Below, piece by piece: positions 3,079 to 51,661 of a stretch of 64,000 bases of DNA. The translations under genes were made by a program, and so were the position numbers. Source of the DNA: Clostridium manihotivorum (GTDB lineage: Bacteria > Bacillota > Clostridia > Clostridiales > Clostridiaceae). The stretch's first letter is position 1. Each line of letters starts with the position of its first letter. Location of the stretch: assembly GCF_004015185.1 (NCBI RefSeq), contig NZ_CP025746.1, positions 1,441,776-1,505,775 on the forward strand, in the 5' to 3' direction. Under the pieces are notes generated by a model. That model made no database searches. It was not told the origin of the DNA and was given only the letters and a program-made list of their open reading frames with translations.

Positions 3079-4132
3079 AATTATTTTAAAAGATATAAAT
3101 TTGGGAGGAACTATGAAAGATAAATCAATTGCAATTCAATGTGATGAAATGACACAAGAAGTAATGAAAGACTTACAACAGACGATGGAAAGTTCATTTT
3201 GTAGAACATCAGAAAGTTTAAGTGAGGAAATTGTACAAAAGTTAGAACCAATCAGTAGTTCTTTAAGCAAGCTTAGAAATGATTTTTCTGATAGCAATGA
3301 AGAGAATATTGAAAAGTTAGATGAGTTAATTGAGGAGATAAGTAATATTTCAAAATCAATAAAAGAAAGTGTAGAACAACAGGTTAAAAGTATATTAATA
3401 GAGCAGGCTCAAGCCATAGAAAAAGTGTTAGTTGATAACACACAAGAGATAAAAGATATAATTGAAGAAAAGGATAATGTTGTTTCAGATAAATTAGGTC
3501 AATTTAAGAAGAATATATTAAATGAAATATTAAAGCTTAATGATAAAATCGATGATAAAACAGTTGTCGAAATAATAAACAAGCTTGAATCAAATTTTAA
3601 TGATAAATTTAATAGTATACAAGAAGAATTGCAATCTGGAAAAGAAGAAATAACAAGTTTAAATATGCAATCTGCAGAGGAAATAGTAAAAAAGATAGAA
3701 AATTCAATAGATAGAAATGTTACAACCAATAGAGAAGATATACTTAATGAGATATCAAAGCTAAATCAGAAAATCGATGATAAAACAGTTATCGAAATAA
3801 TAAACAAGCTTGAATCAAACTTTAGTGATAAATTTAATAGTATGCAAGAAGAATTGAAATCTGGAAAGGAAGAAATAACAAGTTTAAATATGCAATCTGC
3901 AGAGGAAATAGTAAAAAAGATAGAAAATTCAATAGATAAAAATGGGGAAACAAACAAGGAAGACATATTGAACGAGATATCGAAGCTAAATCAGAAAATC
4001 GATGATAAAACAGTTATAGAAATTATAAACAAGCTTGAATCAAGCTTGAATGATAGATTTAATAGTATGCAAGAAGAGATAGAGTGGGGCAATAAATCAT
4101 TTTTTGCTAGAATCTTTGGAAGGAAACGATAG
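3062..4132 (+). CDS. coiled-coil protein with tandem ~80-aa repeats
   Basis: Charged, heptad-like sequence. The block ...ISKLNQKIDDKTVIEIINKLESNF.DKFNSMQEELKSGKEEITSLNMQSAEEIVKKIENSID... is repeated about 2.4 times. The gene is embedded between dynamin-like genes and overlaps its neighbour by a few bases. Confidence 0.6.
   Translation: MQIKNKIILKDINLGGTMKDKSIAIQCDEMTQEVMKDLQQTMESSFCRTSESLSEEIVQKLEPISSSLSKLRNDFSDSNEENIEKLDELIEEISNISKSIKESVEQQVKSILIEQAQAIEKVLVDNTQEIKDIIEEKDNVVSDKLGQFKKNILNEILKLNDKIDDKTVVEIINKLESNFNDKFNSIQEELQSGKEEITSLNMQSAEEIVKKIENSIDRNVTTNREDILNEISKLNQKIDDKTVIEIINKLESNFSDKFNSMQEELKSGKEEITSLNMQSAEEIVKKIENSIDKNGETNKEDILNEISKLNQKIDDKTVIEIINKLESSLNDRFNSMQEEIEWGNKSFFARIFGRKR
3505..4080 (+). 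repeat. ~240-bp tandem direct repeat (about 2.4 copies) inside the coiled-coil gene
   Basis: Near-identical DNA blocks start at ~3505, ~3745 and ~3985. Antisense ORFs 3499..3729, 3766..3966 and 3991..4239 in the track echo the same repeat. Confidence 0.8.
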
Positions 4133-4138
4133 AGTAGG

Positions 4139-5899
4139 ATGAGATATATAGATTTAATTAACAATTCAAAGTTTAATGAATTAATTGAGAGGTATTTAAA
4201 CAATGTTATCGATGGAATAGATGCTAAAGAATATTTCAAGCATTTTACAGAAAACTTAAAGAATCAGGAAATAATTGTTCCAGTATTGGGGATACAAGGT
4301 GCAGGAAAAAGCAGTTTTCTTAATTCTATTTTAATGGATGATAATATTTTGCCTACAGATGTTGATGAAACAACTTGTGTTCCAGTAGAAGTGAGATATG
4401 GAACTAATACAAGTAAAGCTGAAATATATTTTCATGAAAAAGAAAAGGAATTAGTAGATGTAAGCACTTTAGAAAAATATGTACATAATGATTACAATCC
4501 AGCTAATGAATTAAGAGTTTCTAAAATAGTCTTATATAATGAAAGCGAAATTTTAAAGAATAATGTTGTGCTTGTTGATTTACCAGGGGTAGGAAGTTTA
4601 ACTCCAGAAAATCAGAAAACTACATTAGATTATGTAGAAAAGCTTGTTACTGCTATATTTATGATTAGAACAGTTCCACCTATAACAAGAACTGAAAAGA
4701 ATTTTATTAACGCATTATGGCCAAAGCTTAGTAATACTATTTTTGTTCAAAATAAATGGAATGATGAAAGTAATGAAGAGGCAGAGGATGCAAAAGAGCA
4801 TAATCAAAGTGTTTTACAAAGCATTAGCAATTCACATAATGATGAAAGAGATATTAATGTTAACATAGTTAATGTGTATGAGGCAATACAAGGAAAATTT
4901 TTAGATAATGATGAGAATTATAAGAATTCTGGAATATTGAATGTAATAAAAGAGATAAAGAATATTTCTACTGACTATAATAAAGATTTGGAAAGTACTT
5001 TAAACATGAGAGTAGAGGGAATATTGAATAATATAACTTCTATAATTGAAGATAACAAAAGAATATGTAATAACCAAAATAATCAAAATGAATTAGAAAA
5101 AGAGAAAAGAATTATTGAAATAAAGCAGATTCTTAAAGAAAATAAAAAAAATATTAGGCAAATAAAAAACTATGTTTATGATGAGATGGACATTATTATC
5201 AGTAGAGTTCTAAAGGATACAAAAGAAAATATTGAAAATACAAGAACAGAACTCAGAAGAATGATAAATACAGGAATAGTTGATGGTGAACTTCTTTCAA
5301 ATATATATAAAGAAGAAGCTGAAAAGGCAATTAATAATATAATGGAAAATCTGCTAATGAACATGGAAGATCTTACTAATACACTAAATGAAAAACTTGG
5401 ATTAATAAGAATAAAAGGTTTTGATGGAAAATATGAAAATAGATCATCTTTTAATAAAAAGGAAGCATTTAAATTTGAAAAGGCTGTAAATCCAATATTA
5501 AGTATTGGAGGTGGAATAGCAGCAGTTTTTATTGTTGGTGGAGGAATACCTGGAATTATTATAGGTGCTGGAATAGGAATTATATGTTCTATATTTGGAG
5601 GACTAATAAATAAAGGTATCAAAAATGTAAGAGTTAAAAGAACAATAGAAGATTTGGAGCCTATAATAACTCAATTGAAAAAAGACTTAGATAAACAAAT
5701 TGTTGATAGTTTAAGAGGAAAAAGGGACGAGATTGAAAGTGAATTAAATAAACTAAAAGATGATTTAGAAAATGAATGTGATAAGGATATTGAAAAAATA
5801 GAAGAACAATACTCAGGTAAATTTGATGAAAAAAATATTGCAGCGCTAGATATGGATTTAGAAGATGTAAAAAGAATGAAGGAGGCTATAAATGAATAA
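4139..5899 (+). CDS. bacterial dynamin-like GTPase 2 with a membrane paddle
   Basis: G1 GIQGAGKSS, G3 DLPGVGS and G4 NKWND (NKxD). A Gly-rich hydrophobic segment GGGIAAVFIVGGGIPGIIIGAGIGIICSIFGG is present. Confidence 0.75.
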   Translation: MRYIDLINNSKFNELIERYLNNVIDGIDAKEYFKHFTENLKNQEIIVPVLGIQGAGKSSFLNSILMDDNILPTDVDETTCVPVEVRYGTNTSKAEIYFHEKEKELVDVSTLEKYVHNDYNPANELRVSKIVLYNESEILKNNVVLVDLPGVGSLTPENQKTTLDYVEKLVTAIFMIRTVPPITRTEKNFINALWPKLSNTIFVQNKWNDESNEEAEDAKEHNQSVLQSISNSHNDERDINVNIVNVYEAIQGKFLDNDENYKNSGILNVIKEIKNISTDYNKDLESTLNMRVEGILNNITSIIEDNKRICNNQNNQNELEKEKRIIEIKQILKENKKNIRQIKNYVYDEMDIIISRVLKDTKENIENTRTELRRMINTGIVDGELLSNIYKEEAEKAINNIMENLLMNMEDLTNTLNEKLGLIRIKGFDGKYENRSSFNKKEAFKFEKAVNPILSIGGGIAAVFIVGGGIPGIIIGAGIGIICSIFGGLINKGIKNVRVKRTIEDLEPIITQLKKDLDKQIVDSLRGKRDEIESELNKLKDDLENECDKDIEKIEEQYSGKFDEKNIAALDMDLEDVKRMKEAINE

Positions 5900-7673
5900 T
5901 CTTAATAGTTGTATTGAAAGACAAAATAAAATTGATTCTGTTGTGAATAAGGTTAATGATAACAGCATTATAGCAAAAAACCTTCTTATTAAAGAGAGGA
6001 TAATGAATCCTGCTCATTATATTGTAATGCTTGGAGAGACAAGCGCTGGAAAAAGTGCGTTAATAAACAGTGCTTTAAATAATAATAAAATTTTAATTGA
6101 AAATGCAAAACCTACTACTGGAGTAATTACAGAAGTTGTGATTTCTAATAAGAGTGAAGATACATATTTAGCGATAAATAAAGATTCAAGCTTAGAGGAA
6201 TTAGATAAAGAAACTTTTGATGAACTTGTAGTAAATCCTGATGATAATTTGCATAGGCTAAGATATATTGGAAAATCTAAAGATAATATGTACGAGGGAA
6301 TGAGACTTTTTGATACACCTGGATATGGATCTTTGATTAGTTATCACGAAGAAGTATTAAAAGAATTCATACCTGAGAGTGATGTTGTTGTTTATGTGGT
6401 ATCCTACAAATCGGGATTAGGTGATGATGATTTTCAATTTTTAAAATATGTTGGAGAGATAATAAACGATAACGTAGAAGTTGTACTAGCCATCAATATG
6501 TGTCCATCTCAATTAAATTCTAGCAATAAAAGAATAAGTGAAATACATGATGCAGTTAATGATTGTATACATAAAGAAGTTAAAGTATTTCTTGTAGAGA
6601 GTAATAAAGAAAAGAACTTAGATACAAAAGAATTATGGGATTATATTTATAGAAGTGTAAATAGTGAAGAGAAGATAGAAGAACTTTGCAAAACACTATA
6701 TAATTATCAAAATTATATTTTAGATGAGTGTAAAATTCGAGTAACTTCACAAATTGCAAGGATAGAATCAGCAGAAGCAGATTTAGAAGAAAAGCTAAAT
6801 TTAGATAGAGAATTTTTAAATAATAGAAAAGAAATTTTAAAGCTAATAGAAGAGACATTTACTAAAATAGCAGATAAATCTTTAACTTTAATAATCAAAT
6901 CATCAGAAAAAATAAAGAAAGAAACATATGGATTCATAGATGATTCAGATAGATGGAGTAAGAAGGAAGAAACTTTTGCATATATGCAAAATTATCATAT
7001 TCCTAAATTAGTAGAAAAAGAAACAGAAAATTTAATGAATTATATTGAAGATGAAATATGTCAATTAGATCAGAAAATTGAAAACATATTAAATACTGCA
7101 ATTAAAAATTTGCAAACTAAAGTAAGCATAGAAATACCAATATATACAGAAGTGATAGAGAGTATTGTTAAAAAGCATGTTGGAGATGGCATTAAAGAAG
7201 GTTTAAAAGAAATGTTTATGAGTGTAGGTGGAAATGGAGGTGTTGGAGCAGGGGTTGCTAATGCGGCAAGTAAAGGACTGAAAAATTTAGGAAACTTATT
7301 TGGTAAGACCTTTAGTAGAGAAACTCATAATAATTTAAAACATTTTTTAAAAGTGATAAAAGCTACATCAATTAAAGGTATATCAGTGTATTTAGCTGTT
7401 TTTACAGAAGGCATATTCTATTTATATGATGCATTAACATGGCAAGGAAAGTTAAAGGATAGAACAGAGGAAGCAATTTCTGGGTGGAAAATTGATATTG
7501 AAAAATCTGTCATTAAAGAGTTGCAGAATTTAAAAGAAGCAAATGAAGATGAAATAAATGATTTATTTGATGATTTTGCAAGAAGCTTTAATAAAGATGA
7601 GGATGAGTTAGATAGTATTGAGATAGATGAATTAATTAAGTTAAAATTAGAAATTTTAGAGCTATATAAATAA
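5892..7673 (+). CDS. bacterial dynamin-like GTPase 3
   Basis: G1 GETSAGKSA, G3 DTPGYGS and a Gly-rich segment GGNGGVGAGVANAASKG. Its start overlaps the upstream stop, indicating an operon. Confidence 0.75.
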   Translation: MNNLNSCIERQNKIDSVVNKVNDNSIIAKNLLIKERIMNPAHYIVMLGETSAGKSALINSALNNNKILIENAKPTTGVITEVVISNKSEDTYLAINKDSSLEELDKETFDELVVNPDDNLHRLRYIGKSKDNMYEGMRLFDTPGYGSLISYHEEVLKEFIPESDVVVYVVSYKSGLGDDDFQFLKYVGEIINDNVEVVLAINMCPSQLNSSNKRISEIHDAVNDCIHKEVKVFLVESNKEKNLDTKELWDYIYRSVNSEEKIEELCKTLYNYQNYILDECKIRVTSQIARIESAEADLEEKLNLDREFLNNRKEILKLIEETFTKIADKSLTLIIKSSEKIKKETYGFIDDSDRWSKKEETFAYMQNYHIPKLVEKETENLMNYIEDEICQLDQKIENILNTAIKNLQTKVSIEIPIYTEVIESIVKKHVGDGIKEGLKEMFMSVGGNGGVGAGVANAASKGLKNLGNLFGKTFSRETHNNLKHFLKVIKATSIKGISVYLAVFTEGIFYLYDALTWQGKLKDRTEEAISGWKIDIEKSVIKELQNLKEANEDEINDLFDDFARSFNKDEDELDSIEIDELIKLKLEILELYK

Positions 7674-7719
7674 TAATGACAAATAGTCTAAAACGTAGAA
7701 GATAAGAATTGGAGATGTA

Positions 7720-8229
7720 GTGATGGACAATACAATTTTACCTGTTGCAAATAGCAGAAGAAGTAGAGTAAGTAATAAAGAAAGCCAGACTATAGTTAAT
7801 GGTGGATACCAAGAAGTATATACAGATATGAATTCTACAAGAGTTCATTCTGAGTCAAACAATAATGGCAATAAAGAAGTATTAAATAAATTTTTAACTA
7901 ATGAAAAAATAATAAGTTCGGTAGCTGATAATATGAGTACAGTTTTAGATATAGCAAAAGAAATAGTTAGAATTAAAGGTAGCAGGATTGAAACTCAAAA
8001 TACATTAGATATTATGGATAAAGAGATAGATAAATTACAAGCAGCTACAGATGATTATGTAAGACGTGTAAGTGAGGATATAAAGACTTTGGCAAATAGA
8101 GCTGAAGTAACTTTAGAACTAATGAATAATCTTACAAATTCATTAAAAGAAAATAACATGAGTGATGATATAAAGGCACTTTTAATTAATGCAGTTTCAA
8201 GTTCAATTGATAAGGTGTGGGAAAAGTGA
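7720..8229 (+). CDS. hypothetical protein
   Basis: ORF in operon position after the DLP genes; no recognised motif. Confidence 0.4.
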   Translation: MMDNTILPVANSRRSRVSNKESQTIVNGGYQEVYTDMNSTRVHSESNNNGNKEVLNKFLTNEKIISSVADNMSTVLDIAKEIVRIKGSRIETQNTLDIMDKEIDKLQAATDDYVRRVSEDIKTLANRAEVTLELMNNLTNSLKENNMSDDIKALLINAVSSSIDKVWEK

Positions 8230-8549
8230 TAGATAAAAAGGATATTATTGATATAGCAATTGCACTAGTTAAAGATGAGGAATATAAAAGGGCAAATAGG
8301 CTTATTATTGATAAGATGAATCAAGTTCTAGAAAAGAAAACTGAAAGTGACAGGGAGAAAATAAGAGAACTTAATAAAGAAATCTTTATGCTAAACAGAA
8401 CTATAGATAAATATATATTTAAATTAAAAGAAATAAAAGGTAAAGTATCAAATGATTTATCCTTAAAGAGATTAGAAGATTGTTTAGTGGAGATTGAAAA
8501 TGAACGCAAAAGAATAATAATAGAGAAGAGAAATATATCATTTAGATAA
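8217..8549 (+). CDS. hypothetical coiled-coil protein
   Basis: Overlaps the preceding ORF, suggesting translational coupling. Charged, helical composition. Confidence 0.4.
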   Translation: MGKVIDKKDIIDIAIALVKDEEYKRANRLIIDKMNQVLEKKTESDREKIRELNKEIFMLNRTIDKYIFKLKEIKGKVSNDLSLKRLEDCLVEIENERKRIIIEKRNISFR

Positions 8550-8786
8550 AGTAATTATTAATATAGAAAGTTATTCTAGTAATAGAAATGCAAATTATCT
8601 TGAATTTAGATAATAATTATTTATGAAACTTGATAATAAACTAATATTTCATTGGTCTATTAATTAAGCCTATAAATTGTCAAAGATTAAGTAGGCTAGA
8701 GAAAATTCTACTCAATGGTCTATACAAAGAAGAGTTAAAAACACTAAAAGATATTTTAAATAGTATGGAATTGTAAAATTGAAATG

Positions 8787-8830
8787 AGACATAGGGCTTA
8801 CCAATAAACCTATGTCTCATAATATTTTAA
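8787..8830. terminator. hairpin terminator, possibly bidirectional
   Basis: atgagacatagg-gcttaccaataaa-cctatgtctcat, a perfect 12-bp stem flanked by A/T-rich runs. It lies between the DLP operon and the convergent sigma gene. Confidence 0.5.
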
Positions 8831-8888
8831 GTATTTCTATACGTTTTTTATAAAATTTATATTTGTAGAGATCCTGTGTAATGATAGC

Positions 8889-9488
8889 TTAATTTGTGAA
8901 GTTACAATACTTGTCTACTTTAAATGCAAGCTTTAGTTTACTAAGAATACTTGTTTTCATATCAACAACCTTATAATAAGGAATCATTTTAAAATCGGAA
9001 TACTTCTTCATGGAATAGCCTTTAAAGAAAATATATAGTACAAGTTCCTTTTCTTTTTCATTTAGAGTATTAATGATAGAGCTTATCTGAGACTTTACTT
9101 GATTTTGGCAAATAATATCTTCAACATAATTCATATCGCAACAATCTATGTTCTCCAAGTTAGTATCTAACATAACTACCTTAGAACCATCAGTTAACTG
9201 TCTTCTTACAGATTTTCTTATAAGACAATTAACTGAATTCTTCATAGCATTAGTAGCATAAGCTACAAATCTATGTTTTTCTGGTTCATAAAGCTTTATA
9301 CAATTAAATAAAGTTTTATAGCATTCATTTCTTATATCATCAAATTCATATCCACTTACAAAAGATTTCTTACACAGATTTATTATAAAAGGGTTAAATT
9401 CTGAAACTAATGTTTCTTTAGCTTCTTCATTATCTTCCTTGCATAGCAGTACTAGATTTTCAATATGTTTATAATCCATAAATATCAC
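8889..9488 (-). CDS. sigma-70 family RNA polymerase sigma factor (small, TcdR/UviA- or ECF-like)
   Basis: 199 aa with the region 2/region 4 pattern of small sigma factors (...YATNAMKNSVNCLIRK..., C-terminal HTH-like segment). Divergent from a cell-wall hydrolase gene. Confidence 0.55.
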   Translation of the reverse strand: MIFMDYKHIENLVLLCKEDNEEAKETLVSEFNPFIINLCKKSFVSGYEFDDIRNECYKTLFNCIKLYEPEKHRFVAYATNAMKNSVNCLIRKSVRRQLTDGSKVVMLDTNLENIDCCDMNYVEDIICQNQVKSQISSIINTLNEKEKELVLYIFFKGYSMKKYSDFKMIPYYKVVDMKTSILSKLKLAFKVDKYCNFTN

Positions 9489-9546
9489 CTCTCAACTAAA
9501 ATATATGCCAGTCGGCATATATCTAAGGAAAAGGAGGTAGATACTC

Positions 9547-10248
9547 ATGAAAATATCAAAACTAGCTATAGATATAGGCCACAATGTTCAATTTGACGGG
9601 GGAGCAGTAGGTATAAGATCAGAAAATGAGCTTAATTATGAGGTAGGAACAAAGCTTATAGAAAAATGCAGAGCTGAAGGGCTAAATGTAATTAACTGCA
9701 CTCCTAAAAGTGCCACTAGCTTATATGATTCTTTAAATCAAAGAGTAAAAGCGGCTAATAATAACAATGCTGATTTCTTTATTTCCATTCATCATAATTT
9801 ATGTACTGGAGGCCATGGATCGGAGATATTATGTATTCCAGGAGGAAGAGCTGAAGAAGCTGCTAAAATAATTCTTACTGAGATCGCAAAGTTAGGTTTT
9901 ACGAATAGAGGAGTAAAAGCAAGAAATGATTTGTTTGTACTAAAAAATACTAATATGTCTGCGATACTTATAGAATGTGCTTTTTGTGATAGTCCAGTCG
10001 ATATGAATAATTATAATCCAGAGAGTATGGCAGAGGCAATATTTAAAGGGATATGCAAAGCATTTGAGCTAAATGTATCAGAAGATAATCGGTCTACTGA
10101 GCAAGCTAATTATTATATAGTAGTAAGAGGCGACACATTATATTCAATAGCTAAAAGGTATGGAACTACAGTTGAAAAAATAGCTTCACTGAATAATATT
10201 GCCAATGCTGATATTATCTATGAGGGACAGAAAATTAAGGTTAAGTAA
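9547..10248 (+). CDS. N-acetylmuramoyl-L-alanine amidase (Amidase_3) with C-terminal LysM domain
   Basis: DIGHN...ISIHHN...E motifs of the zinc amidase_3 family. The C-terminal [30 protein letters not shown]...GQKIKV is a LysM domain. Confidence 0.8.
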
Positions 10249-10440
10249 AAGTTTTAAGGAGATTGATAGAATAGATTATAATTAAAGAAAGTTGATATTT
10301 ACCAAGTTATACTAAGTGTCCACATAGCTGCAATCAAATAAAGTAAACAATAAGCTTAAATAGTAAGATAAGTAGAATATAAAGTAATATATATTTAATT
10401 AAATAGTCTATTTAGGAGATCAATTATATATACTGAATTG

Positions 10441-10478
10441 ATAAAGCCTGCAATTTTAATGGATTGCAGGCTTTTCTT
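10441..10478 (+). terminator. rho-independent terminator
   Basis: aaagcctgcaa-ttttaatggat-tgcaggcttttcttt: GC stem followed by a T-run. Confidence 0.6.
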
Positions 10479-10588
10479 TATGTGTCTATTTTATTGTAAA
10501 ACTTGAAGGAATTTATAATGGTATAAGTATATTTACTAATGTGCTTATGTGTGAATATATGACAAAGTCATAGAAGAGCAATTTTTTC

Positions 10589-11716: not shown

Positions 11717-13051
11717 ATGGCCAATAGGAAGAACAGAACAAATATTATGTATAAAAATCTTATAATGAAATCATTTATACAAAACAAAAGAAGAGAGCCA
11801 CTATACATAGTTATTAAATTATTAAGAAATATCAATGAAGAAGCTAAACAAGCTTTAAACTTAAATGAAGATGAGGAAAATATATTATTAAATGTTGAAG
11901 AAGAAGTTAAATTTCAGGTATATTTCGATGAGAAAGATGATGAGATATATGCAAGTATAGATGAAAATACAAATTTTATAAAGTTGGTGAGATTTGTTAA
12001 TAACAAATTTGATGAAATGAAGGAAAAAAAGTTGATTACTGGAGATTCGCAAAAAAATTGCTTAATAGGTACAATCAAATTTTTACGAGAAAAGTATGGA
12101 AGTGATTTAAGCGGTTTTCAGAGTAGAGTAAATTTTATGCTTGGTGATATTGTTTCATTTGAATTAACAAATAATCGAATCTTAAGTTCTAAAAAAATTT
12201 CAGGTACATTAACTACATATATATATAATGATATATACATGTATAAAGAAGACTATAAAAGATGTAAATTGGGAAACGTAGATCAAATATTTGAAGATCA
12301 AGATATATTACCTTGTGAAAATGTAGTAAATAGGTTTTTAGATATACTTCTTTTTGATAAAAGGATGCAATTGATTAGTGGTGAAAGGTTGAATTTTTTA
12401 TTAAAAGGTGTTCCTGGAACGGGGAAGTCGACCGCTGTTGATAACTATCTGCATAAAATTGGAGTTGTAAATACCGAAAATATTTGCAGAATAAATGTTC
12501 ATTCAGGTACTAGCAATAGTGATTTGATGCAAGGCATAGGAATAAGTTTAAAAGGAGTAGATATTTTATACACTGAAAAACAAGGTATGGTTCTTAGTTT
12601 TATTTTAAGTGCTATAAAAAATCCAGAACAAAAGTATGCATTAATATTAGAAGAAATACAGGAGAATAGTCTAAATGAAATTTTAGGAGATTTGATATAT
12701 TTGATCGAAGAGAGTAAGAGAGTGGATAATAGTTTTATTATCAAAATTAAAGAGACATTAGGTGATATAGAAACTTATGATCCGTTTAAAATTATTGATA
12801 CTTTATTAGAAAAATATCCATGGTTTTATTATATAAATATGCCTAAGTTAGTTGAAGATAATGATGATAGAAAATTTAATAAACTGATATTACCTAATAA
12901 TTTATTTGTTTTTTGTACTACTAATTACAGTGAAGAAAAAAATATATTAGAGGACAATTTATTTAGAAGATTTGAAGTTATTGATATTTTTCCAGATGAA
13001 GAACAAATAAAAGATAAATATATATATTTCAATAAAACTTCTACATTTTAA
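11717..13051 (+). CDS. McrB-like AAA+ GTPase restriction subunit (LlaJI R1-like); 3' end probably truncated or altered by IS insertion
   Basis: Walker A LLKGVPGTGKST. The ILEEIQENSLNEILGDLIYLIEESKR region resembles the McrB motif IIDEINRxNxSxxFGELxxLIE. The ORF ends inside or at the IS630 element. Confidence 0.65.
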   Translation: MANRKNRTNIMYKNLIMKSFIQNKRREPLYIVIKLLRNINEEAKQALNLNEDEENILLNVEEEVKFQVYFDEKDDEIYASIDENTNFIKLVRFVNNKFDEMKEKKLITGDSQKNCLIGTIKFLREKYGSDLSGFQSRVNFMLGDIVSFELTNNRILSSKKISGTLTTYIYNDIYMYKEDYKRCKLGNVDQIFEDQDILPCENVVNRFLDILLFDKRMQLISGERLNFLLKGVPGTGKSTAVDNYLHKIGVVNTENICRINVHSGTSNSDLMQGIGISLKGVDILYTEKQGMVLSFILSAIKNPEQKYALILEEIQENSLNEILGDLIYLIEESKRVDNSFIIKIKETLGDIETYDPFKIIDTLLEKYPWFYYINMPKLVEDNDDRKFNKLILPNNLFVFCTTNYSEEKNILEDNLFRRFEVIDIFPDEEQIKDKYIYFNKTSTF

Positions 13052-14215
13052 TGCATAGCCTGTCTATGATTTCTGTAGGGGTTTTATTTATATGTGTAAT
13101 AAACCTTTGCACTGCTTCGCTTACCCTAGATAAGGTAGGATAGAATGCATTATTAATTATTCTTGACTTAAGCCACCCCCATAACCCCTCTATCAAATTA
13201 AGTTCTGGACTATATGGTGGTAAAAATACTAACTCTAATCTATTTTTATTCTCATATAAAAAGGGCTCAAGTAGTTTTGCATGATGTATTCTTGCATTAT
13301 CTAGTATCATTACGATTTTACCCGTAGGGTATTGTTCTAGTATACACTTTAAGAATCTTTCAAATACAACTGCATCATACCTCTCATGCTCTTCACAATA
13401 TACTTTTCCTGTACCATAATCCAATATCCCTATTAATTTTACTCCAGCATTTTTACCGTAGGTTGGGATTTTACGACGCTGACCTTTCTTAAACCAAGTT
13501 TTCTGTATAGCTTGATAGTCTCTTATCATGGATTCATCTTCGAACAGAAGATGCGCTAGCTCCCCATTAATTAGTTTTTTTAGGTCTTCAAAAGTTACCT
13601 TAAATTCTTCTTGCTTTTCTTTATCAGCTTTTTTTAGTACGTAGGTTGGTCTTGTATAGCTTAGATTTAATCTATGCAAAATTTCATGGATTCCCCTGTG
13701 ACTCATGGTTATACAAAATGTTTTAATCACCCACTGCCTAATTATTTCAATAGTCCAGTTTTTTCTAGATTCAAACCCGACTTCGTCAGGAGTTTTATTT
13801 GTTACAATTTCAACTATCATGGCTTCTTGGTCTTTACTCAATTTTCTGGGAGCTCCTGTACTATGCTTCATTACTAAGCCTAGCAATCCTTTAGCTTTGT
13901 AGTTTTTAATGTAGTCTCCGACTGTATGTTGATCTAAAGAAACCATTTTAGCAATATCAACATTTGAAGCACCTTCCAAGTGCCTTAATATTACTAGGTA
14001 TCTTTTATACATTCGTACATTTTTAGTTTCCTTCATAATTGACTTTAATTCATTAATTTTTTCATTTAATTCTAATGTATTATTTGAATAAATATTATCC
14101 ATATAAATCACAACCTTTTAAATATTATTGTAATTATTTTGCACTTATTTGCGATTTATATATTTGGTAATATTCTACTATGAATTTTTATTATTGAAAT
14201 TTATATATATAAAAT
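13035..14215 (-). mobile_element. IS630-family insertion sequence (boundaries approximate)
   Basis: Contains a single DDE transposase gene with the IS630 signature LPPYSPELNLIEGLWGW. It lies between the two parts of a McrB-like reading frame. Terminal inverted repeats could not be defined confidently by eye. Confidence 0.5.
13041..14111 (-). CDS. IS630-family DDE transposase
   Basis: 356 aa with an HTH N-terminus and the DDE domain motif ...LDNARIHH...LPPYSPELNLIE... Confidence 0.9.
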   Translation of the reverse strand: MIYMDNIYSNNTLELNEKINELKSIMKETKNVRMYKRYLVILRHLEGASNVDIAKMVSLDQHTVGDYIKNYKAKGLLGLVMKHSTGAPRKLSKDQEAMIVEIVTNKTPDEVGFESRKNWTIEIIRQWVIKTFCITMSHRGIHEILHRLNLSYTRPTYVLKKADKEKQEEFKVTFEDLKKLINGELAHLLFEDESMIRDYQAIQKTWFKKGQRRKIPTYGKNAGVKLIGILDYGTGKVYCEEHERYDAVVFERFLKCILEQYPTGKIVMILDNARIHHAKLLEPFLYENKNRLELVFLPPYSPELNLIEGLWGWLKSRIINNAFYPTLSRVSEAVQRFITHINKTPTEIIDRLCIKM

Positions 14216-15931: not shown

Positions 15932-16078
15932 TCTGTTATAAATTAATTTGTATCAATAGTCAATTTGCAGTTATAAGCATAAAAGGCTTAATTAAAATTG
16001 TAGTTTTGAATAATATTCGTGCTAATTATAAGAGAATGGTTAATAGCGTTTAATTATATTTAGGTGATAGATTTTTAG

Positions 16079-16640
16079 AGTTTGTGCAAGCTTTGGGAGC
16101 CAGTAATAATCTGACCAGTGAGTAGTGCTGAAGAAGGATTATGGAAGTCTATTGAAGCTTGTACAAACTTTCATATTTGGCTTAAATGAAAATATAAATT
16201 TAAATATGTGTCAGCAATAGGAGAAGCTGGACCAGCTAAGCAATGCTTGTACTATATAAGTGGACCTGCATCGCGGCCAGTATGGCTTCTCTTTTTGCTG
16301 ATTTTGTTTATTGAAAATTGAAGTGATTATAATATGTCTTCAGCAAATTATATCATATGAGGTTATTAGGAAGAACGGGAAGGAAAGCAATAAAAATTAG
16401 AGAACAAAGAGTCAGGTAGGGGAGTCGCAGTATCATCTATACCTACAGTACATACGCTTGTCCATTTGGGCGTAGCCGCTAAACATTCTTTTGTGAAGTG
16501 TACAAGTAAGGACCACATAGGAAGACTTAAGAGCTTGCTTGTAAATAGGACTGGCGTTGACCTGATATAACTACTTAAGAGTTGCCTGTCCTATGTCATT
16601 TTCACAAAAGAGGGTGTTTAGCGAAGTGGACAAGCTACTT
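16079..16640 (+). ncRNA. candidate large structured noncoding RNA (unclassified)
   Basis: An ~850-bp ORF-free gap with locally elevated GC. There is a 15-bp helix 16079-16093/16155-16169 with one G.U. Nested helices 16456-16464/16627-16635 and 16477-16488/16612-16623 carry two U.G wobbles; those positions pair only on the + strand. Confidence 0.35.
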
Positions 16641-16777
16641 TAAAATAGGAAATAATAAATGTGTTCAATTAATATAAAGATCCAATCTGAATAATTTAAT
16701 ATTTTATTTATAAACGTAGAGAAGCAATGAAATAAATTTAAGTTTGTGCTAAAATTAAATTAAAGATTGGAGGAATT

Positions 16778-17674
16778 ATGGCAATGGTAATTAACTTTCC
16801 TAAAAATTTAAGAACAGATAAAAAAGGGATTGAATTTTTAGCTTTTTTGTGGGGAGTAAGTAAGAAAATCTATAAAGGCAGAATTATATGGAATTTGAAG
16901 TATACAAAAAAAATTGAAACCAATCTATTGTCTTTTTTAGGCTTAATTGCAAGAAGGATGGATAGTAGAAATAATATAATTGAAATGGTTATAAGGGATA
17001 GTAATGGAATGACAATAAAGGTATCTGATAATATATTGACTCGTTTATTTAAGAAGTATTCTTCTAATAAAAATAAATTATTAGAATATAATTTTTTAGA
17101 TGAAAACAATTCAAAAGAAGAAATAGAGATACTTTTACTTAAAAATTTAGAAGAGCTAAAATTACTATACTATTCAGACATTAAGATTTTATTAAGTGAA
17201 TTTATTGCCAACATATTTATGCATGCAACTGATAAAGAGGGGTCAATGTCTGGATATATGACAGATAAAGATGATATATTAATAAGTGTATGTAATATTG
17301 GGAGAACAATTAAACAAAATATAGAAAGTGTAAATGAATACAAATTTTTAAATGATAAAGATGCAATTTTGTGGGCTTTAAAAAAGAACAATTCCACAAG
17401 AAATAAAGAAGAAAGTGGAGGTTTAGGATTATATCTTCTTAGAAAATATATTAATAAGATTGATGCAGAAGCATATATTATTTCTGGAAAGTTTTTTATT
17501 AGCCTTTCTGGTGATAACTGCTTTGATGAAAATGATGTTAATAAATTTTATTTCAAGGAAGAATTTGAAATGAAAAGTTTTTTTCCCGGTAATTTGATAA
17601 CTTTAAAGTTTAAGAATGAGAGGAATTATGTGTTTAATAATAAAGTGTATTTACCACGAATAGATTTGTTGTGA
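16778..17674 (+). CDS. GHKL-type ATPase (HATPase_c; SpoIIAB/RsbW-like serine-kinase fold) with unknown N-terminal domain
   Basis: N-box EFIANIFMHA and G2-box ESGGLGLYLLRKYI resemble anti-sigma-factor kinases. It is the first gene of a tight three-gene operon. Confidence 0.55.
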   Translation: MAMVINFPKNLRTDKKGIEFLAFLWGVSKKIYKGRIIWNLKYTKKIETNLLSFLGLIARRMDSRNNIIEMVIRDSNGMTIKVSDNILTRLFKKYSSNKNKLLEYNFLDENNSKEEIEILLLKNLEELKLLYYSDIKILLSEFIANIFMHATDKEGSMSGYMTDKDDILISVCNIGRTIKQNIESVNEYKFLNDKDAILWALKKNNSTRNKEESGGLGLYLLRKYINKIDAEAYIISGKFFISLSGDNCFDENDVNKFYFKEEFEMKSFFPGNLITLKFKNERNYVFNNKVYLPRIDLL

Positions 17675-17691
17675 TTTGGAGGATTTAGCTA

Positions 17692-18957
17692 GTGGATTGT
17701 ATTATCGATTTTTTAAGTGATATTAAACAAAAAGACTTGAGGAGATTAGCACAGAATCAAAGTGAATGTTATGAAGATGCAATAGAGCTATATAAGGAAC
17801 TGTTTATATCGAATTTTTCACAAATTAAAGATGCTTGTAGTGATGAGAAATGTGATATAAAGAGTAAATGTAATGAATTAAGAGAAATAATTTTAGGCAT
17901 TGAAAATGCTGAAATTATAGATTTCTTTGATAAAATGAAATTAGTATATATAAATTGGATCGATGCAAAAATTAAAGATTCCTTGGAAGTATTTACAGAT
18001 ATTATGAATCAATATGAATTATGGTGTTTCTATGATACTGATATAAAAAAAGAAATATTTTTTAAAGGAAGAATAGAAAAAAATATATTAACAAGATGGG
18101 AAATGTTTCATATACCATTTAATAAAAGGTATTTAATTAAAAATCAGAGATATAGCTTAACTGGACAGCCAATAATATATTTAGGTAAATCGATTGTTGA
18201 TATAATTCATGAATTAGATATTAGTGATGAAAACATTGGTGACTTGAAGATATCTTCAATAAGAATTAAAGAAGATTTGAAAGTTTACGATTTAAGAAAT
18301 AATATATATGATTTACTTAATAAGACAGAATTCCTAGAAGTAATAGGTGGAGAAGGTATAGAAAAAAATTATAAACAAACGTTCTTTAAGATACTATTAG
18401 CATCGATATGTAGTTTCGAAAGAAAAAAAGAACATAAAGATTATACTTTTTGTGAGGAGTATGTAATACCACAAATTTTAGCTCAGACATTGAAAAATAA
18501 GGAGTATGATGGAATTATATATTTTTCAACTAAAAAATTTGAAGGTGTAAGTTTTGAAAATACTAAGGAGAATATTTCATTAACTAATAAAACTAAGTAT
18601 AAAGAAAATGTAGCTCTTTTTACTAATTTTAATAAGGATCATGTATATGATGAAGTTCTTTATAGTAAATTGGATATTAGTTCTCCAATAGATTTAACAA
18701 AATCACAGGATTTTAATATCAATCATCTTGATGAGACATGCAAGAAAATTGAATTTACAAAAAATCAAAAGGAAATTAATGATAGTCAAGTAATAGTAAC
18801 TATTTTTAAAAGGGAATTTGAAGGTATAAAAATTAATGATTCAAAATATATTGATAAAGATATGGGAAAAATGCATATATATCATTTATATTGTATTCTA
18901 AATAAAATTCTATGTAAAAGTAGTGAGGTGGTAATTAATGAAAGAAATAATAGTTAG
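17692..18957 (+). CDS. RES-domain protein (putative NAD+-targeting toxin/effector) with extra N- and C-terminal regions
   Basis: NQRYSLTGQPIIYLGKSIVDIIHEL matches the RES consensus R(F/Y)n..G.p.lYla.s...al.E. DGIIYFSTK...NVALF matches the G.l.PS...N.vlF block about 130 aa downstream. GTG start with RBS tggagga. Confidence 0.55.
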   Translation: MDCIIDFLSDIKQKDLRRLAQNQSECYEDAIELYKELFISNFSQIKDACSDEKCDIKSKCNELREIILGIENAEIIDFFDKMKLVYINWIDAKIKDSLEVFTDIMNQYELWCFYDTDIKKEIFFKGRIEKNILTRWEMFHIPFNKRYLIKNQRYSLTGQPIIYLGKSIVDIIHELDISDENIGDLKISSIRIKEDLKVYDLRNNIYDLLNKTEFLEVIGGEGIEKNYKQTFFKILLASICSFERKKEHKDYTFCEEYVIPQILAQTLKNKEYDGIIYFSTKKFEGVSFENTKENISLTNKTKYKENVALFTNFNKDHVYDEVLYSKLDISSPIDLTKSQDFNINHLDETCKKIEFTKNQKEINDSQVIVTIFKREFEGIKINDSKYIDKDMGKMHIYHLYCILNKILCKSSEVVINERNNS

Positions 18958-19249
18958 AGATATACTAAAATCTAATGTGGCTATTAGTAAAGATGACGGT
19001 GATATAGTATTTAATCAAATTAAGACTGAGATAGAGAATAAAAATAGTATTCTTATTGATTTTAAGAATATAGATTTAATAAATACAGCTTTTCTAAATA
19101 ATGCTATAGGCAAGATTTATTTTATCCCAATTGAGAAAAGAATGGATACAACTGTAAGAATAGTCAATTTCCCATTAGAAGTAATGGAGTTGCTTGAAGA
19201 AGTTATTAATACTGCTAAAGAGAAAGCTTCAATAACTGAAGATGCTTAA
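18938..19249 (+). CDS. STAS-like (SpoIIAA / anti-sigma antagonist fold, DUF4325-like) small protein
   Basis: ~100 aa, overlapping the upstream gene. Pattern ...ILIDFKNIDLINTAFLNNAIGKI... is typical of STAS/anti-anti-sigma proteins. Adjacent to a GHKL ATPase. Confidence 0.5.
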   Translation: MKEIIVRDILKSNVAISKDDGDIVFNQIKTEIENKNSILIDFKNIDLINTAFLNNAIGKIYFIPIEKRMDTTVRIVNFPLEVMELLEEVINTAKEKASITEDA

Positions 19250-19350: not shown

Positions 19351-19385
19351 TCATATGAAGACGCCATCTAATAGATGGCGTCTTT
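19351..19385. terminator. bidirectional rho-independent terminator
   Basis: aagacgccatct-aata-agatggcgtctttt, a perfect 12-bp stem with T-runs, between convergent genes. Confidence 0.7.
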
Positions 19386-19395
19386 TGTAAGTAAA

Positions 19396-19794
19396 CTAAA
19401 ATTCTACTATTTTTTTTAATTTTAAATACATCTCATAAGACAACCCAATCCTACCACTAATTAATCTTTTAAGGGTAGACTCACATACCCCAAGAAGCCT
19501 ACAGCACTTGCTATAAGTATATTTCTTCTTCTCCTTCCACCTCCTGACCATCTCACCAGGTTCATTAAAATAGAAATAATAATACTCATGAAAGTACTCA
19601 AGTGGTAAATCAAATTTATCACACACCTTTTTTATACTTTCAGGTTTAGGCATAACATCATGAGTCTCCCAATGAAGCACCGTATCAAAATGTTGACCTA
19701 TAATTTCAGCAAACTCTTTTTGATTTAAGCTATGTACTTTTCTTAGTTTAATTATTTTCTTACCAATAGTATCTTCTTCTAAATCCTTATACAT
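19396..19794 (-). CDS. XRE-family HTH transcriptional regulator
   Basis: N-terminal KIIKLRKVHSLNQKEFAEIIGQHFDTVLHWE is a Cro/C1-type HTH. Confidence 0.7.
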   Translation of the reverse strand: MYKDLEEDTIGKKIIKLRKVHSLNQKEFAEIIGQHFDTVLHWETHDVMPKPESIKKVCDKFDLPLEYFHEYYYFYFNEPGEMVRRWKEKKKYTYSKCCRLLGVCESTLKRLISGRIGLSYEMYLKLKKIVEF

Positions 19795-28152: not shown

Positions 28153-28581
28153 TTTAATCCCCCTTATTTAATGCCTAATTTTCCATATGAATTATTTGTA
28201 AAATTATATCATATATGGATTGAGAACAGGGCTATAAATTAAAATAATTCACAGTTTCTTAATGGTTTTCTACTGAATTATTTGCTTAGTATAAGACTTA
28301 TGAAGAATATAGAATGCCGTGGCATAAGGTATATATTGACTGAGAGAATATCCAGCATTAAAATGATGATATGTTTATTTAGGTAACATTTTTACTGGAG
28401 GTGATAATTATATAAGGTAAGTCTATATAGTTGGTTTAAATAAGAAGGTTAATTACTTAATTTCAACAAGATAATTTAACAGAGGCATACAACAGTTTTA
28501 AAACACCTACTAAAACCCACTAAAATATATTGGAATATTGTTAGTTTTATGTTGTCATAATATGTGTAAAGAGGTGATAGC

Positions 28582-29044
28582 ATGAAGTATTATACAATTG
28601 GTCAATTCTCAAAATTAATGGGAAAAAGTATTCAAACTTTAAGATTGTGGGATAATGAAGGAAAGTTAAAACCACATCATATAACAGAAGGTGGACACCG
28701 TTATTATTCTGAACAACAAATTAATCAAGTTTTGCAAGTGCCACTTGTTAAGAGAACTAAAAAAGTAATTGGATATTGTAGAGTATCAAGTAATAAACAA
28801 AAAGATGATTTAGCAAGACAGGTTGCTGAGATTTGGGTTTGAAATAATAGAAAATCTATGTAATAAGTATGGGACTGACATCGAAATCATAGATAACACT
28901 GAAAAAACAGAAGAACAGGAATTAGTTGAGGATTTAATTCAAATTGTTACAGTTTTTAGTTGTAGGTTGCAAGGCAAAAGAGCCAATAAAGCAAAGAAAA
29001 TGATTAAGGAGCTGTTAGAGAATGATACTGGCGAAGAAAGTTAG
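28582..29044 (+). pseudogene. tnpA: IS607-type tnpA (MerR-HTH + serine recombinase) with internal deletion and frameshift
   Basis: MerR-like HTH MKYYTIGQFSKLMGKSIQTLRLW, catalytic-Ser motif IGYCRVSSNKQKDDLARQ, then a frame break. The RFGFEII...ELVEDLIQ tail resumes in another frame, with ~50 aa of recombinase core missing. Confidence 0.7.
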
Positions 29045-30167
29045 AATTATTCCGAATATAGAGCAAGAACAAAAATTATGGCAGTCTGTTGGTACTGCAA
29101 GATATATTTATAATTGGACACTTGCAAGACAAGAAGAAAATCACAAAAATGGTGGCAAGTTTATAAAAGATGGAGATTTAAGAAAAGAATTAACTATTTT
29201 AAAGAAATCAGAACTTAACTGGCTTAATGAAGTATCTAATAATGTAGCAAAACAGGCTGTAAAAGATGGTTGTAGTGCTTATAAAAATTTCTTTAAAGGG
29301 TTAGCTGATAAACCAAGATTTAAGAGCAGAAGAAAAAGCAAACCTTCATTCTATAATGATACAGATAAACTAAAAGTTAAAGAAAATTTAGTATTAATTG
29401 AAAAAGTAGGTTGGATTAAAACAGTAGAGCAAATACCTACAGATATTAAATATATTAATCCAAGAATAAGTTTTGACGGTAAGTTTTGGTATATATCTAT
29501 AGGCATAGAAAAAGAAGAAACTATATCAGAAAATACAGATATATCAATAGGTGTGGATTTAGGATTAAAAGATTTAGCAATAGTTTCAAATATAGATAAA
29601 CCATTTAAAAATATTAATAAAGCTAAAGAAGTGAAAAGACTAAAAAAGAAGTTAAAAAGAAAGCAGAAACAAGTTTCAAGAAAATATGAAGATGGAAAAA
29701 TTCGAATAGGAAAGGAAGGTGAAAACCGTTATAAATTTACTAAAACTAATAATATTAAAAAACTCGAAAGAGAATTAAAACTTATTCAAAGAAGGCTTTC
29801 AAATATACGTTTAAATCATATTCATCAAACAACAACTGCAATAGTGAAAACCAAGCCAAGCAGAATAGTTGTTGAAGATTTAAATGTAAAGGGTATGCTT
29901 AAAAATAAACACTTATCAAAGGTTATACAAGAACAATGTTTCCATAAGTTTATTAGTATCTTAGAATATAAGAGTAAATTTAATGGCATTGAATTTGTAA
30001 AAGCAGATAGGTTTTATCCTTCAAGCAAAACTTGTTCTTGTTGTGGAGCAATAAAGAAAGATTTAAAACTTAAAGACAGAGTTTTTGTTTGTCCATCATG
30101 TAATGCTCGGATGGATAGGGACAAAAATGCGTCAATAAATCTTTCAAGGTATAAAAAATCAGCATAA
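29022..30167 (+). CDS. tnpB: TnpB (IS605 OrfB-family RNA-guided nuclease, RuvC + zinc finger), apparently intact
   Basis: 381 aa; ...IGVDLGLKDLA... (RuvC-I D), ...VVEDLNVKGM... (RuvC-II E), CSCCG...CPSCN zinc finger, ...MDRDKNASINL (RuvC-III D). Confidence 0.85.
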   Translation: MILAKKVRIIPNIEQEQKLWQSVGTARYIYNWTLARQEENHKNGGKFIKDGDLRKELTILKKSELNWLNEVSNNVAKQAVKDGCSAYKNFFKGLADKPRFKSRRKSKPSFYNDTDKLKVKENLVLIEKVGWIKTVEQIPTDIKYINPRISFDGKFWYISIGIEKEETISENTDISIGVDLGLKDLAIVSNIDKPFKNINKAKEVKRLKKKLKRKQKQVSRKYEDGKIRIGKEGENRYKFTKTNNIKKLERELKLIQRRLSNIRLNHIHQTTTAIVKTKPSRIVVEDLNVKGMLKNKHLSKVIQEQCFHKFISILEYKSKFNGIEFVKADRFYPSSKTCSCCGAIKKDLKLKDRVFVCPSCNARMDRDKNASINLSRYKKSA

Positions 30168-30326
30168 TATCACTAACAAGATAGTGCTGATATGTACTGT
30201 GCGTTACGCAGGATTTTAAGCCTTTGGAGCAACATATCAAACTGGAGTAGTCTTATGACAAAACAGGTTGCGTTGAATAAGGAATAAATCTCTAAACATT
30301 AGATTTTAGTAGATTTTATGTAACGG
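30168..30326 (+). ncRNA. predicted omega (right-end) RNA scaffold of TnpB
   Basis: ~160-nt segment between the tnpB stop and the element end, conserved with only a few substitutions in copy B (51490..51648). Established TnpB biology places the guide scaffold here. Confidence 0.5.
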
Positions 30327-47774: not shown

Positions 47775-48386
47775 TTAAAAAGAACTTGTATGTCCGTGGC
47801 TATGTGAGTTCATGAATGATGCTCCAGTTGATCCTAGATTTGAGCCCATATTTGAACTTCCTTGTTGCTGTCCGCCATATTGTTGTTGCTGTTGTTGCTG
47901 TTGTTGCTGCTGAGTTTGTTGAAGTTGTTGAAGTTGTTGCTGTTGTTGTTGTTCTCCTTGGCTCATTTGATTTAATTGTTGTTGAGTTTGCTCTATTAGC
48001 TGACTCATCTGTGCAAGGGTCTGATTTGATTGTAAGAACTGGCTAGCCTTGCTTAAATCGTTCATAGCACTTGTTATTGAAGATTGTAACTGTTGTTGAG
48101 TTTGCATTTGTTGTTGCTGAGTTTGTTGTTTGAAATCCTTTATTTGTTGTTGTAGATCAGTTATAACTTTATTTCCTTGATTGCTTTGTTGGCTACTTTG
48201 AGACTGACCACCTTGAGATTGTTGTGATCCAGACATTGAGCTTTGTTGTTTTAATTGATTTAAAGTGCTTGACATAGCGCTTAATTGATCTTTTAAGCCT
48301 GTGATTTCAGCACCTATTTCAGCATCATTTTTTTTGCTATCAACATAGTTCTCTATTACTTTTTTACTTTTTTCGTCCATCACCAA
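47775..48386 (-). CDS. glutamine-rich coiled-coil protein (low complexity)
   Basis: Long poly-Q/QQL runs encoded by CAA/CAG/TTG repeats at ~47860-47960. Confidence 0.5.
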   Translation of the reverse strand: MVMDEKSKKVIENYVDSKKNDAEIGAEITGLKDQLSAMSSTLNQLKQQSSMSGSQQSQGGQSQSSQQSNQGNKVITDLQQQIKDFKQQTQQQQMQTQQQLQSSITSAMNDLSKASQFLQSNQTLAQMSQLIEQTQQQLNQMSQGEQQQQQQLQQLQQTQQQQQQQQQQQYGGQQQGSSNMGSNLGSTGASFMNSHSHGHTSSF

Positions 48387-49223: not shown

Positions 49224-49904
49224 TTCTATTCCTCCTATTGTCCTCATAGCTACTATTTTAATTTTCTTAAAATTAAGATATACAGGTCTTATAAAAGATG
49301 TATGGATGTTAAAGAGTAAAACTGTACTGTTCGAACGTAGTGAGTTTACAGTTTTAGCCGTGGAATATGAAAAAATCATATTAATTCTTTGTGTAAGCTC
49401 ATCTAAGCATCGGAATACTAACCACTTAATTAACATGGTAGTTTAACAGAGCCGAAATTAAAAGTATACATGAGGTTTATTTATAATTTAATGATATTAT
49501 AGTCCATTAAATTTCAATACTCAATGGTATAAAAAGGAACCCATAGGGGGTATATTATTTTAATAATATTTTTGAAGATAGTCCTTGGAACTAATTAGTG
49601 ACAATATAAATTAATGGTAAATTATAGATAGTTCAATTTGTATATAAAGTTCAAAGGTTCATATGATAAGGTTATTGACGTAAAAAAACAAATTTTATAA
49701 AGTAAGCAAATTTTGTTAGGAGTTGAGATAAATCAATTAGTTTCTTCAAAATAGATATCCATTGATGTATAATTTATAAATAGATATTTAGTTTTAAATT
49801 GGGGAAGGCATACAACAGTTTTAAAACACCTACTAAAACCCACTAAAATATATTGGAATATTGTTAGTTTTATGTTGTCATAATATGTGTAAAGAGGTGA
49901 TAGC

Positions 49905-51489: not shown

Positions 51490-51661
51490 TATCACTAACA
51501 AGATAGTGCTGATATGTACTGTGCGTTACGCAGGATTTTAAGCCTTTGGAGCAACATATCAAACTGGAGTAGTCTTATGACAAAACAGGTTGCGTTGAAT
51601 AAGGAATAAATCTCTAAATATTAGATTTTAGTAGATTTTATGTAACGGAATAATTTAATAT

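Follow-up and report, generated by a model that had tools for sequence, protein, structure and literature searches.

The closest described relatives of the locus considered here are found in the work of Chambers et al. (EMBO J 2026; PMC13373217), which describes both CapK/CapS and the three-gene vapKSC operon. CapK/CapS consists of a kinase and a repressor that joins a STAS domain to a winged helix-turn-helix (wHTH), and single-stranded DNA (ssDNA) switches it on; in VapKSC, VapK combines STAS and GHKL domains, and the antitoxin VapS, a STAS protein, binds to VapC, the PIN toxin. The signal that activates CapK and VapK is ssDNA arising from DNA damage or phage infection, a phosphomimetic S48E substitution in VapS abolishes both binding and neutralization of the toxin, and the operon protected its host from one phage by about 2 logs (PMC13373217). 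Here we analyze a stretch of 64,000 nucleotides (nt) from Clostridium manihotivorum (contig NZ_CP025746.1, positions 1,441,776 to 1,505,775 of the forward strand), referred to in its entirety as the window, and focus on a three-gene operon within it, K-RES-S, which encodes the proteins P1 (K), P2 (RES) and P3 (S). K-RES-S is an effector-swapped relative of a system type first published in 2026. We consider it probable, if by no means certain, that the operon is a VapKSC-type kinase-controlled toxin-antitoxin of abortive-infection-like character, in which the PIN toxin has been replaced by a RES-domain toxin.

The likeness to VapKSC concerns each of the three genes. K is a protein of about 300 amino acids (aa) with STAS and GHKL domains, homologous over its full length to P1; S is a STAS-only protein of about 100-120 aa, homologous to P3 and with the phospho-acceptor Ser/Thr aligned; and the third gene belongs to a toxin family of classic type II toxin-antitoxin systems. 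Both operons are carried on mobile elements and lie near defense genes. They differ in the effector, which is a PIN RNase in VapKSC, whereas P2, large at 421 aa and with extra helical domains, has a RES fold of the ADP-ribosyltransferase (ART)-like type that consumes nicotinamide adenine dinucleotide (NAD+). An earlier note on this DNA had not recognized the arrangement as a named system; a named relative now exists, P1 and P3 being sequence homologues of VapK and VapS. The same note had proposed a partner-switching pair around a RES effector; the likelier logic is that of a kinase-controlled toxin-antitoxin, in which S would inhibit the toxin and phosphorylation would release it. In classic partner switching, the kinase itself holds the output protein. 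No description of a RES version of VapKSC was found in the literature searched, in which the preprint and journal versions of Chambers et al. are the only work to mention VapKSC; the main text of PMC13373217 contains no words starting with 'NAD' or 'ADP-ribos', and its supplements do not contain 'RES domain'.

P1, P2 and P3 form a conserved three-gene unit

The three open reading frames (ORFs) run in the same direction on the plus strand (Table 1) and are tightly coupled as the earlier note described, with a gap of 17 nt between P1 and P2 and an overlap of 20 nt between P2 and P3. Because the latter two genes overlap, translational coupling of P2 and P3 is suggested. Every motif that had been quoted from this operon (EFIANIFMHA, SGGLGLYLL, RYSLTGQPIIYLGKSIVDIIHEL, DGIIYFSTK and NVALF) is present in the translations, and the start residue of P2 is the same in its relatives. 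The hairpin that follows P3 is probably a terminator and marks only the likely end of the operon, with the consensus scan overall not above chance; for promoters, too, the scan of this AT-rich DNA did not exceed chance. PHROGs assigns each of P1, P2 and P3 to a family of unknown function.

P3 is a STAS-like protein, as had been proposed. It scores 34.8 bits against DUF4325, above the 23-bit cut-off, and the profile of its family finds PDB entry 9z7o, 'Escherichia VapS', at E 1.1e-14, the one strong match to a solved protein. In the HMMER alignment, the serine of the VapS motif FASPFFN stands opposite T50 of P3; this serine is position 66 of the 134-residue 9z7o chain and equals native S48 on the assumption of 18 extra residues, a figure deduced from the native VapS length of 116. 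At least 90% of family members keep T50, with Ser in those exceptions that the printed alignment shows, and this residue is the presumed phospho-acceptor, just as P3 is the presumed antitoxin. The P3 family also aligns with the VapS-like protein of Deinococcus gobiensis (hhalign probability 98.8%, E 6e-17). The latter is encoded on plasmid P5 of that organism in a vapKSC-type operon of the order K-S-PIN, which encodes an ATP-binding (300 aa), a STAS-like (121 aa) and a PIN (179 aa) protein.

The VapK-like kinase of the same Deinococcus operon aligns by hhalign with the P1 family over 261 columns that extend across both domains (probability 98.9%, E 1.2e-17). In a Pfam profile search P1 itself reaches HATPase_c at E 9.4e-5 and 23.3 bits, under the 26.4-bit cut-off, and it is the structural and family-level comparisons that verify it as an anti-sigma-kinase-like GHKL protein. 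In the structural model, the C-terminal half resembles SpoIIAB, the best match, and RsbW, and the N-terminal half resembles STAS antagonists. The protein thus begins directly with a STAS-like domain (residues ~1-110), an addition to what the earlier note described, with the GHKL kinase domain C-terminal to it. More broadly, the P1 kinase domain finds its best structural matches in the kinases of the SpoIIAB-SpoIIAA, RsbW-RsbV and SiaB-SiaC pairs, and STAS antagonists match the N-terminal domain of P1. The family shows no variation at E141, N145 and H149 of the N-box or at G214, G215 and G217 (GGxG) of the G2 box. The G1 box reads N173-x-G175-x-T177 against the canonical DxGxG, with N173 invariant and the second Gly replaced by Thr or Ser across the P1 family. 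A profile-profile comparison of the P1 N-terminal domain with P3 was not significant (probability 0.7%), though T48 of the former lies in register opposite T50 of the latter. As a separate observation, the Deinococcus VapK-like kinase (L047 3033-3935) matches the PADLOC model for DrmA (DISARM) over its GHKL region at E 1.4e-10; the P1 family has no such match.

P2 is verified as a RES-fold protein and carries conserved polar residues. Structure comparison identifies a RES/ART-like core (~120-335) set between helical regions (~1-110 and ~340-420), and the core holds a helical insert (~205-270) with an invariant FCEEYVxPQ motif. Within the P2 family R127, R146, Y163 and E174 do not vary, and at least 90% of members retain R153 and S279. 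The order and spacing of R127, R153, Y163, E174 and S279 resemble those of R27, R47, Y58, E69 and S126 in MbcT, a protein whose toxicity requires R27, R47 and Y58 (PMC6436930). Canonical RES toxins are less than half as large as P2. Below-threshold matches to Pfam RES were obtained for 21 of 51 P2 relatives (best E 0.0015), and a profile search of P2 gave no PIN match. With E up to 1e-3, 2448 cluster representatives belong to the wider P2-like family, and 207 remain with E up to 1e-30. The chemistry of P2, whether that of an NADase, an NAD+ phosphorylase or an ADP-ribosyltransferase, cannot be told from the fold. The profile searches that the earlier note recommended gave a divided result, with P3 above its DUF4325 threshold, P1 under that of HATPase_c and P2 without a RES match; despite these marginal scores, structure comparison and family-level comparison settle what domains the three proteins have.

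The arrangement of the three genes is conserved far beyond chance, and some 25 loci in Bacillota and on virus-like contigs show the K-RES-S order. The 32 loci retrieved with P2 homologues span Clostridium, Romboutsia, Anaerosporobacter, Lachnospiraceae, Megamonas and four IMG/VR contigs, and they contain a P1 homologue in 19 and a P3 homologue in 21 cases, with gene order and strand unchanged. Of the 13 loci that an independent retrieval with P1 gave, at least 9 have a RES gene adjoining it, and S is also present in loci of this set. In a C. perfringens chromosome, blastn similarity (74% nt identity) extends across window positions 16784-19231, which comprise the three genes only and exclude the flanks, and the encoded proteins are 65-67% identical to those of the window. 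Because this similarity stops at the edges of the module, what is inherited as a unit is these three genes and nothing more. When K/S pairs with further effectors were sought, scanning viral contigs with the P1 profile gave no match, and the protein database, searched by profile, yielded in essence the 26 proteins already known.

Losses within this unit are informative. The kinase gene is absent in one locus (L014) and disrupted in others (L010 and L040-42), with RES and S intact in all of them, and no complete locus of the K-RES-S clade has RES without S, the exceptions occurring only at contig ends. Because K has been lost in some loci and S never, and because retention of RES with S is what would be expected of an antitoxin S and a dispensable trigger K, this pattern supports the toxin-antitoxin interpretation. 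In one metagenomic protein of 585 aa (P0192), a P2-like RES core (3-322) is followed by a STAS/DUF4325-like domain (362-465; hhalign probability 90%), and this protein may be a natural toxin-antitoxin fusion. It has Phe in place of the Thr equivalent to T50.

Compared with the described Xre-RES systems (Res-Xre, MbcT-MbcA, ParT-ParS and NatT-NatR), K-RES-S lacks an Xre or COG5642 antitoxin. Its presumed antitoxin is instead a STAS protein encoded downstream, a kinase has been added, the gene directly upstream of P2 is that kinase, and P2 is oversized and below the Pfam RES threshold. The likeness to Xre-RES appears in more distant P2 relatives, which stand alone or downstream of a helix-turn-helix (HTH) gene (YopB-YopC of SPbeta, L022 and L023) and, in the latter case, share the HTH-then-RES layout. 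YopC (442 aa; L046 2222-3885) is a distant full-length relative of P2 (probability 99.4%) and is preceded by the HTH protein YopB, as in Xre-RES. Solo relatives are also found in Salmonella phages and in coliphages of the P2-like group, and Escherichia phage Cartapus carries one of 401 aa (L048 2623-3828) directly after its integrase gene.

A candidate mechanism and its alternatives

By analogy with VapKSC, P3 would bind P2 in the unstressed cell and keep it inactive. A stress signal would switch on P1, which as a STAS + GHKL serine/threonine kinase would phosphorylate P3 on T50, and phospho-P3 would then let go of P2. Free P2 would consume NAD+ by hydrolysis, by phosphorolysis or by ADP-ribosylation of a target, and this consumption would halt the growth of the cell and of any phage inside it. 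In this proposal we infer an antitoxin role for P3, phosphorylation of T50, the kind of signal received by P1, the chemistry of P2 and, for K-RES-S as a whole, NAD+ depletion and a protective role in anti-phage defense; the analysis itself shows which domains are present, that P1 and P3 are homologous to VapK and VapS, the P2 fold with its conserved polar residues, how the operon is built and that its genes are conserved together as a single mobile unit.

Several observations weigh against this interpretation. In the window and in every related locus the gene order is K-toxin-S, against K-S-toxin in VapKSC. The adenine-binding Asp of the G1 box, which is retained as DxGxG in the VapK-like protein, is Asn throughout the P1 family, where the box reads NxGxT, and for this reason kinase activity of P1 is not assured; the corresponding D-to-N change in Hsp90 and GyrB abolishes ATP binding. 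The aromatic residue assigned to ssDNA sensing (F54 in VapK, W53 in the Deinococcus protein) faces K45/I46 in the P1 of the window: W53 pairs with K45, the next residue is I46, and several relatives have Phe at that neighboring position. Because the aromatic is not conserved in the window's P1, the signal may differ from ssDNA. P3 has about 10 residues beyond its conserved NA motif, in a tail that is short and varies in the family, and inhibition by VapS needs a longer C-terminal helix (PMC13373217). P2 does not match Pfam RES at E up to 1, and profiles of the full P2 family or of its N-terminal RES half reach no solved RES chain at E up to 10, so that equivalence of residues with MbcT cannot be shown by sequence; the proposed mapping follows from order and spacing. 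The neighborhoods of the module are heterogeneous across loci and include housekeeping genes, and PADLOC v2, like NCBIfam, has no model for P1, P2 or P3.

The same molecular mechanism would be compatible with a different purpose, in which the module would mainly serve its mobile carrier elements as an addiction or stabilization system, or as a toxin-antitoxin of the general stress response, instead of acting as a dedicated anti-phage defense. We consider this a possibility of some weight, though an unlikely one. The module is found on variable islands and on elements resembling prophages or integrative and conjugative elements, its neighbors are heterogeneous with recognized defense genes in few loci only, and the authors of the VapKSC study themselves stress the blurred line between defense and stress response (PMC13373217). 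Set against this are the protection of about 2 logs already mentioned for VapKSC, the abundance of defense-like genes around the module in the window, and the occurrence of solo P2 relatives at moron positions of temperate phages.

Departures from VapKSC at the G1 box and at the aromatic position raise the question of how far the mechanism itself is shared. It is conceivable, although on present evidence improbable, that K-RES-S is a mechanistically distinct branch of kinase/STAS immune modules, one that would answer a different signal, rely on a different nucleotide or on sequestration free of phosphorylation, and release an NAD+-destroying RES toxin. That P1 is a pseudokinase, which on receiving its signal would bind and sequester P3 and so free the RES toxin, or that it would use a nucleotide other than ATP, seems to us rather doubtful. 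SpoIIAB and SpoIIAA form an ADP-bound complex that offers a model for such sequestration. The substitution of N173 for the Asp of DxGxG throughout the P1 family, with Thr or Ser at the second Gly, speaks for it, as does conservation of the remaining P1 fold and of its STAS partner; however, the invariance of E141, N145 and H149 in the N-box and of GGxG in the G2 box would be unexpected for a dead enzyme, and the near-invariance of Thr or Ser at position T50 of P3 suggests that this residue serves as an acceptor.

The kinase-less and kinase-broken loci bear on a further alternative, in which P3 would be an activator of P2 and the kinase would keep the system off. Such logic has a precedent in SiaC, which when unphosphorylated activates the cyclase SiaD. 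Under an activator model, the loci that keep intact RES and S next to a missing or disrupted kinase gene would be constitutively toxic, which weakens it, and there is no phosphatase gene in the operon; we regard this explanation as very improbable. Less credible still is a transcriptional switch of the CapK/CapS type, in which P3 would repress transcription of the RES gene and phosphorylation would lift the repression. CapK/CapS is the sister system of VapKSC and shares with K-RES-S the logic of a kinase and a STAS substrate built from related domains, and the P3 profile weakly matches (E 0.012) the STAS part of PDB entry 9z72, a 'MarR family transcriptional regulator' whose 185-residue chain we take to be CapS from its matching length. 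CapK, however, has an N-terminal HTH and CapS a C-terminal wHTH repressor domain, neither of which is present in P1 (298 aa) or in P3 (103 aa, STAS only), and P3 is encoded downstream of the RES gene and overlapping it, not upstream at a promoter. The idea of a standard SpoIIAB/SpoIIAA or RsbW/RsbV module that regulates a sporulation or stress sigma factor has a negligible chance of being correct, even with SpoIIAB as the best structural match of P1 and weak NCBIfam matches to SpoIIAB and RsbW, given that those matches score 14.7-17.9 bits against cut-offs of 135-155, that neither the window's operon nor that of any relative includes a sigma-factor gene, that the operon has no PP2C phosphatase gene, that a RES gene sits between kinase and STAS genes, that the output would be a toxin, and that the distribution is patchy and on mobile elements. 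The sigma-factor regulator and the CapK/CapS-type switch were accordingly rejected, as each lacks its defining features. With the domains verified, the three genes conserved as a unit and the sigma factor absent, the findings that the earlier note named as grounds for abandoning its proposal did not emerge. Its observation is thus confirmed and its interpretation correct in the main, and a kinase-controlled toxin-antitoxin with a RES effector is the interpretation we favor.

Genomic surroundings of the module

The module lies in a defense-island-like neighborhood, as had been noted, because three dynamin-like GTPases, a type II-like methyltransferase and an McrB-like AAA_5 gene are found upstream of it, and an XRE gene followed by an MqsA/Panacea antitoxin-like gene downstream (Table 1). 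The dynamin-like GTPases match the PADLOC models LeoA and LeoBC (Eleos) at E 1e-10 to 5e-15, and the coiled-coil protein clustered with them contains 225-nt tandem repeats at 3506-4077. What had been called an McrBC-like locus is supported only in its McrB-like part: the McrB-like AAA_5 gene (11717-13051) and an IS630-family transposase gene on the opposite strand (13041-14111; DDE_3 and HTH domains) overlap at their ends, and an McrBC-like system may have been disrupted here by the insertion sequence. Between the transposase gene and position 15931 are ORFs of 143 aa and 452 aa with no family matches.

Downstream, the convergent XRE gene was considered as a cognate regulator and rejected, its linkage to the module being inconsistent among relatives; just 2 of the K-RES-S loci have an HTH gene in the preceding 600 nt or so. 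The XRE gene is separated by about 1 kb, in which there is no ORF of at least 50 aa, from the Panacea-domain gene, for which no obvious toxin partner was identified.

Immediately upstream of P1 is an ORF-poor region of about 850 bp that the earlier note thought might belong to the module. It folds much better than shuffled sequence (z -5.4 on the plus strand and -4.9 on the minus strand) and contains a terminator-like site at 16275-16287 (+). Rfam returned no family for it at the gathering score or at E up to 10, phage records showed no similarity to it, and blastn and nhmmer found no counterpart in 45 related loci, in which the gap upstream of K is usually 0-200 nt. It also lies outside the block common to C. 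perfringens. This region was therefore rejected as a component, and is a separate unexplained feature.

Elsewhere the module occupies diverse sites. In C. perfringens it directly follows the transfer-messenger RNA (tmRNA) gene with a Macro-domain gene intervening, and it is next to tmRNA in many genomes of this species. The Macro-domain neighbor, which is ADP-ribose-related and occurs in the C. perfringens lineage only, was rejected as a fourth component, being absent from the window and all other loci. In one locus (L049) the module sits between ImmA/XRE genes and FtsK with a serine recombinase, in three (L010, L012 and L020) it adjoins type I restriction-modification genes, and IMG/VR contigs also carry it.

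Other repeated and mobile features were noted in the window. Two 99%-identical IS605-type OrfB/TnpB copies occupy 28483-30284 and 49806-51606, each ending in a RAGATH-18 RNA (30221-30284 and 51543-51606; 68.6 bits), and the TnpB of the second copy appears split into ORFs 50345-50872 and 50809-51489. A degenerate array of 9-nt repeats (GTTGTTGCT-like) lies at 47861-48151, within the minus-strand ORF 47775-48386.

Table 1. Features of the K-RES-S locus and its surroundings. Positions are those of the window, except in the last three rows, which refer to locus L050 of C. perfringens.
Feature	Position	Strand	Remarks
Dynamin-like GTPases (836, 586 and 593 aa) and coiled-coil protein (3062-4132)	568-7673		Clustered
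ORF-poor intergenic region, raised G+C	15932-16777 (core 16060-16650)		Three long hairpin modules
Ribosome-binding site GGAGG	16769..16773	+	4 nt ahead of the P1 start codon; read from the sequence
P1 ('K'), 298 aa, ATG start	16778..17674	+	N-terminal STAS-like domain, then SpoIIAB/RsbW-like GHKL kinase domain
P2 ('RES'), 421 aa, GTG start	17692..18957	+	Helical N-terminus, RES/ART-fold core, helical C-terminus
P3 ('S'), 103 aa, ATG start	18938..19249	+	Single STAS-like (DUF4325) domain; presumed antitoxin
Hairpin, perfect 12-bp stem	19358..19384	. (scan: minus strand)	Between the convergent P3 and XRE genes
Protein with two XRE-type HTH domains	19396-19794	-	Convergent
MqsA-like zinc-ribbon/HTH and SocA/Panacea antitoxin-domain protein, 343 aa	20823-21854		
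L050: span shown	6037-10481		Closest homologue of the module
L050: tmRNA	6037-6397		
L050: Macro-domain protein, 424 aa	6480-7754		

Implications for the control of RES toxins

The way in which RES toxins escape their antitoxins in vivo is, to our knowledge, not well understood. In K-RES-S the trigger would be a single defined phosphorylation site, T50 of P3, which would make activation of a RES toxin directly testable, and the unusual G1 box of P1 poses a specific question on the use of nucleotides by GHKL kinases. Should the module prove to be a mechanistically distinct branch, it would be the first RES toxin under post-translational control by a signaling kinase and not by an Xre antitoxin. 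Its carriers are clostridial islands, those of C. perfringens included, and virus-like contigs, and the C. perfringens module next to tmRNA offers a tractable and medically relevant host. More generally, our findings would show that the kinase and STAS trigger, which controls a PIN toxin in VapKSC and transcription in CapK/CapS, forms a portable unit of control, one that a RES toxin can be connected to as well, and they would link two themes in toxin-antitoxin and defense biology that have so far been separate.

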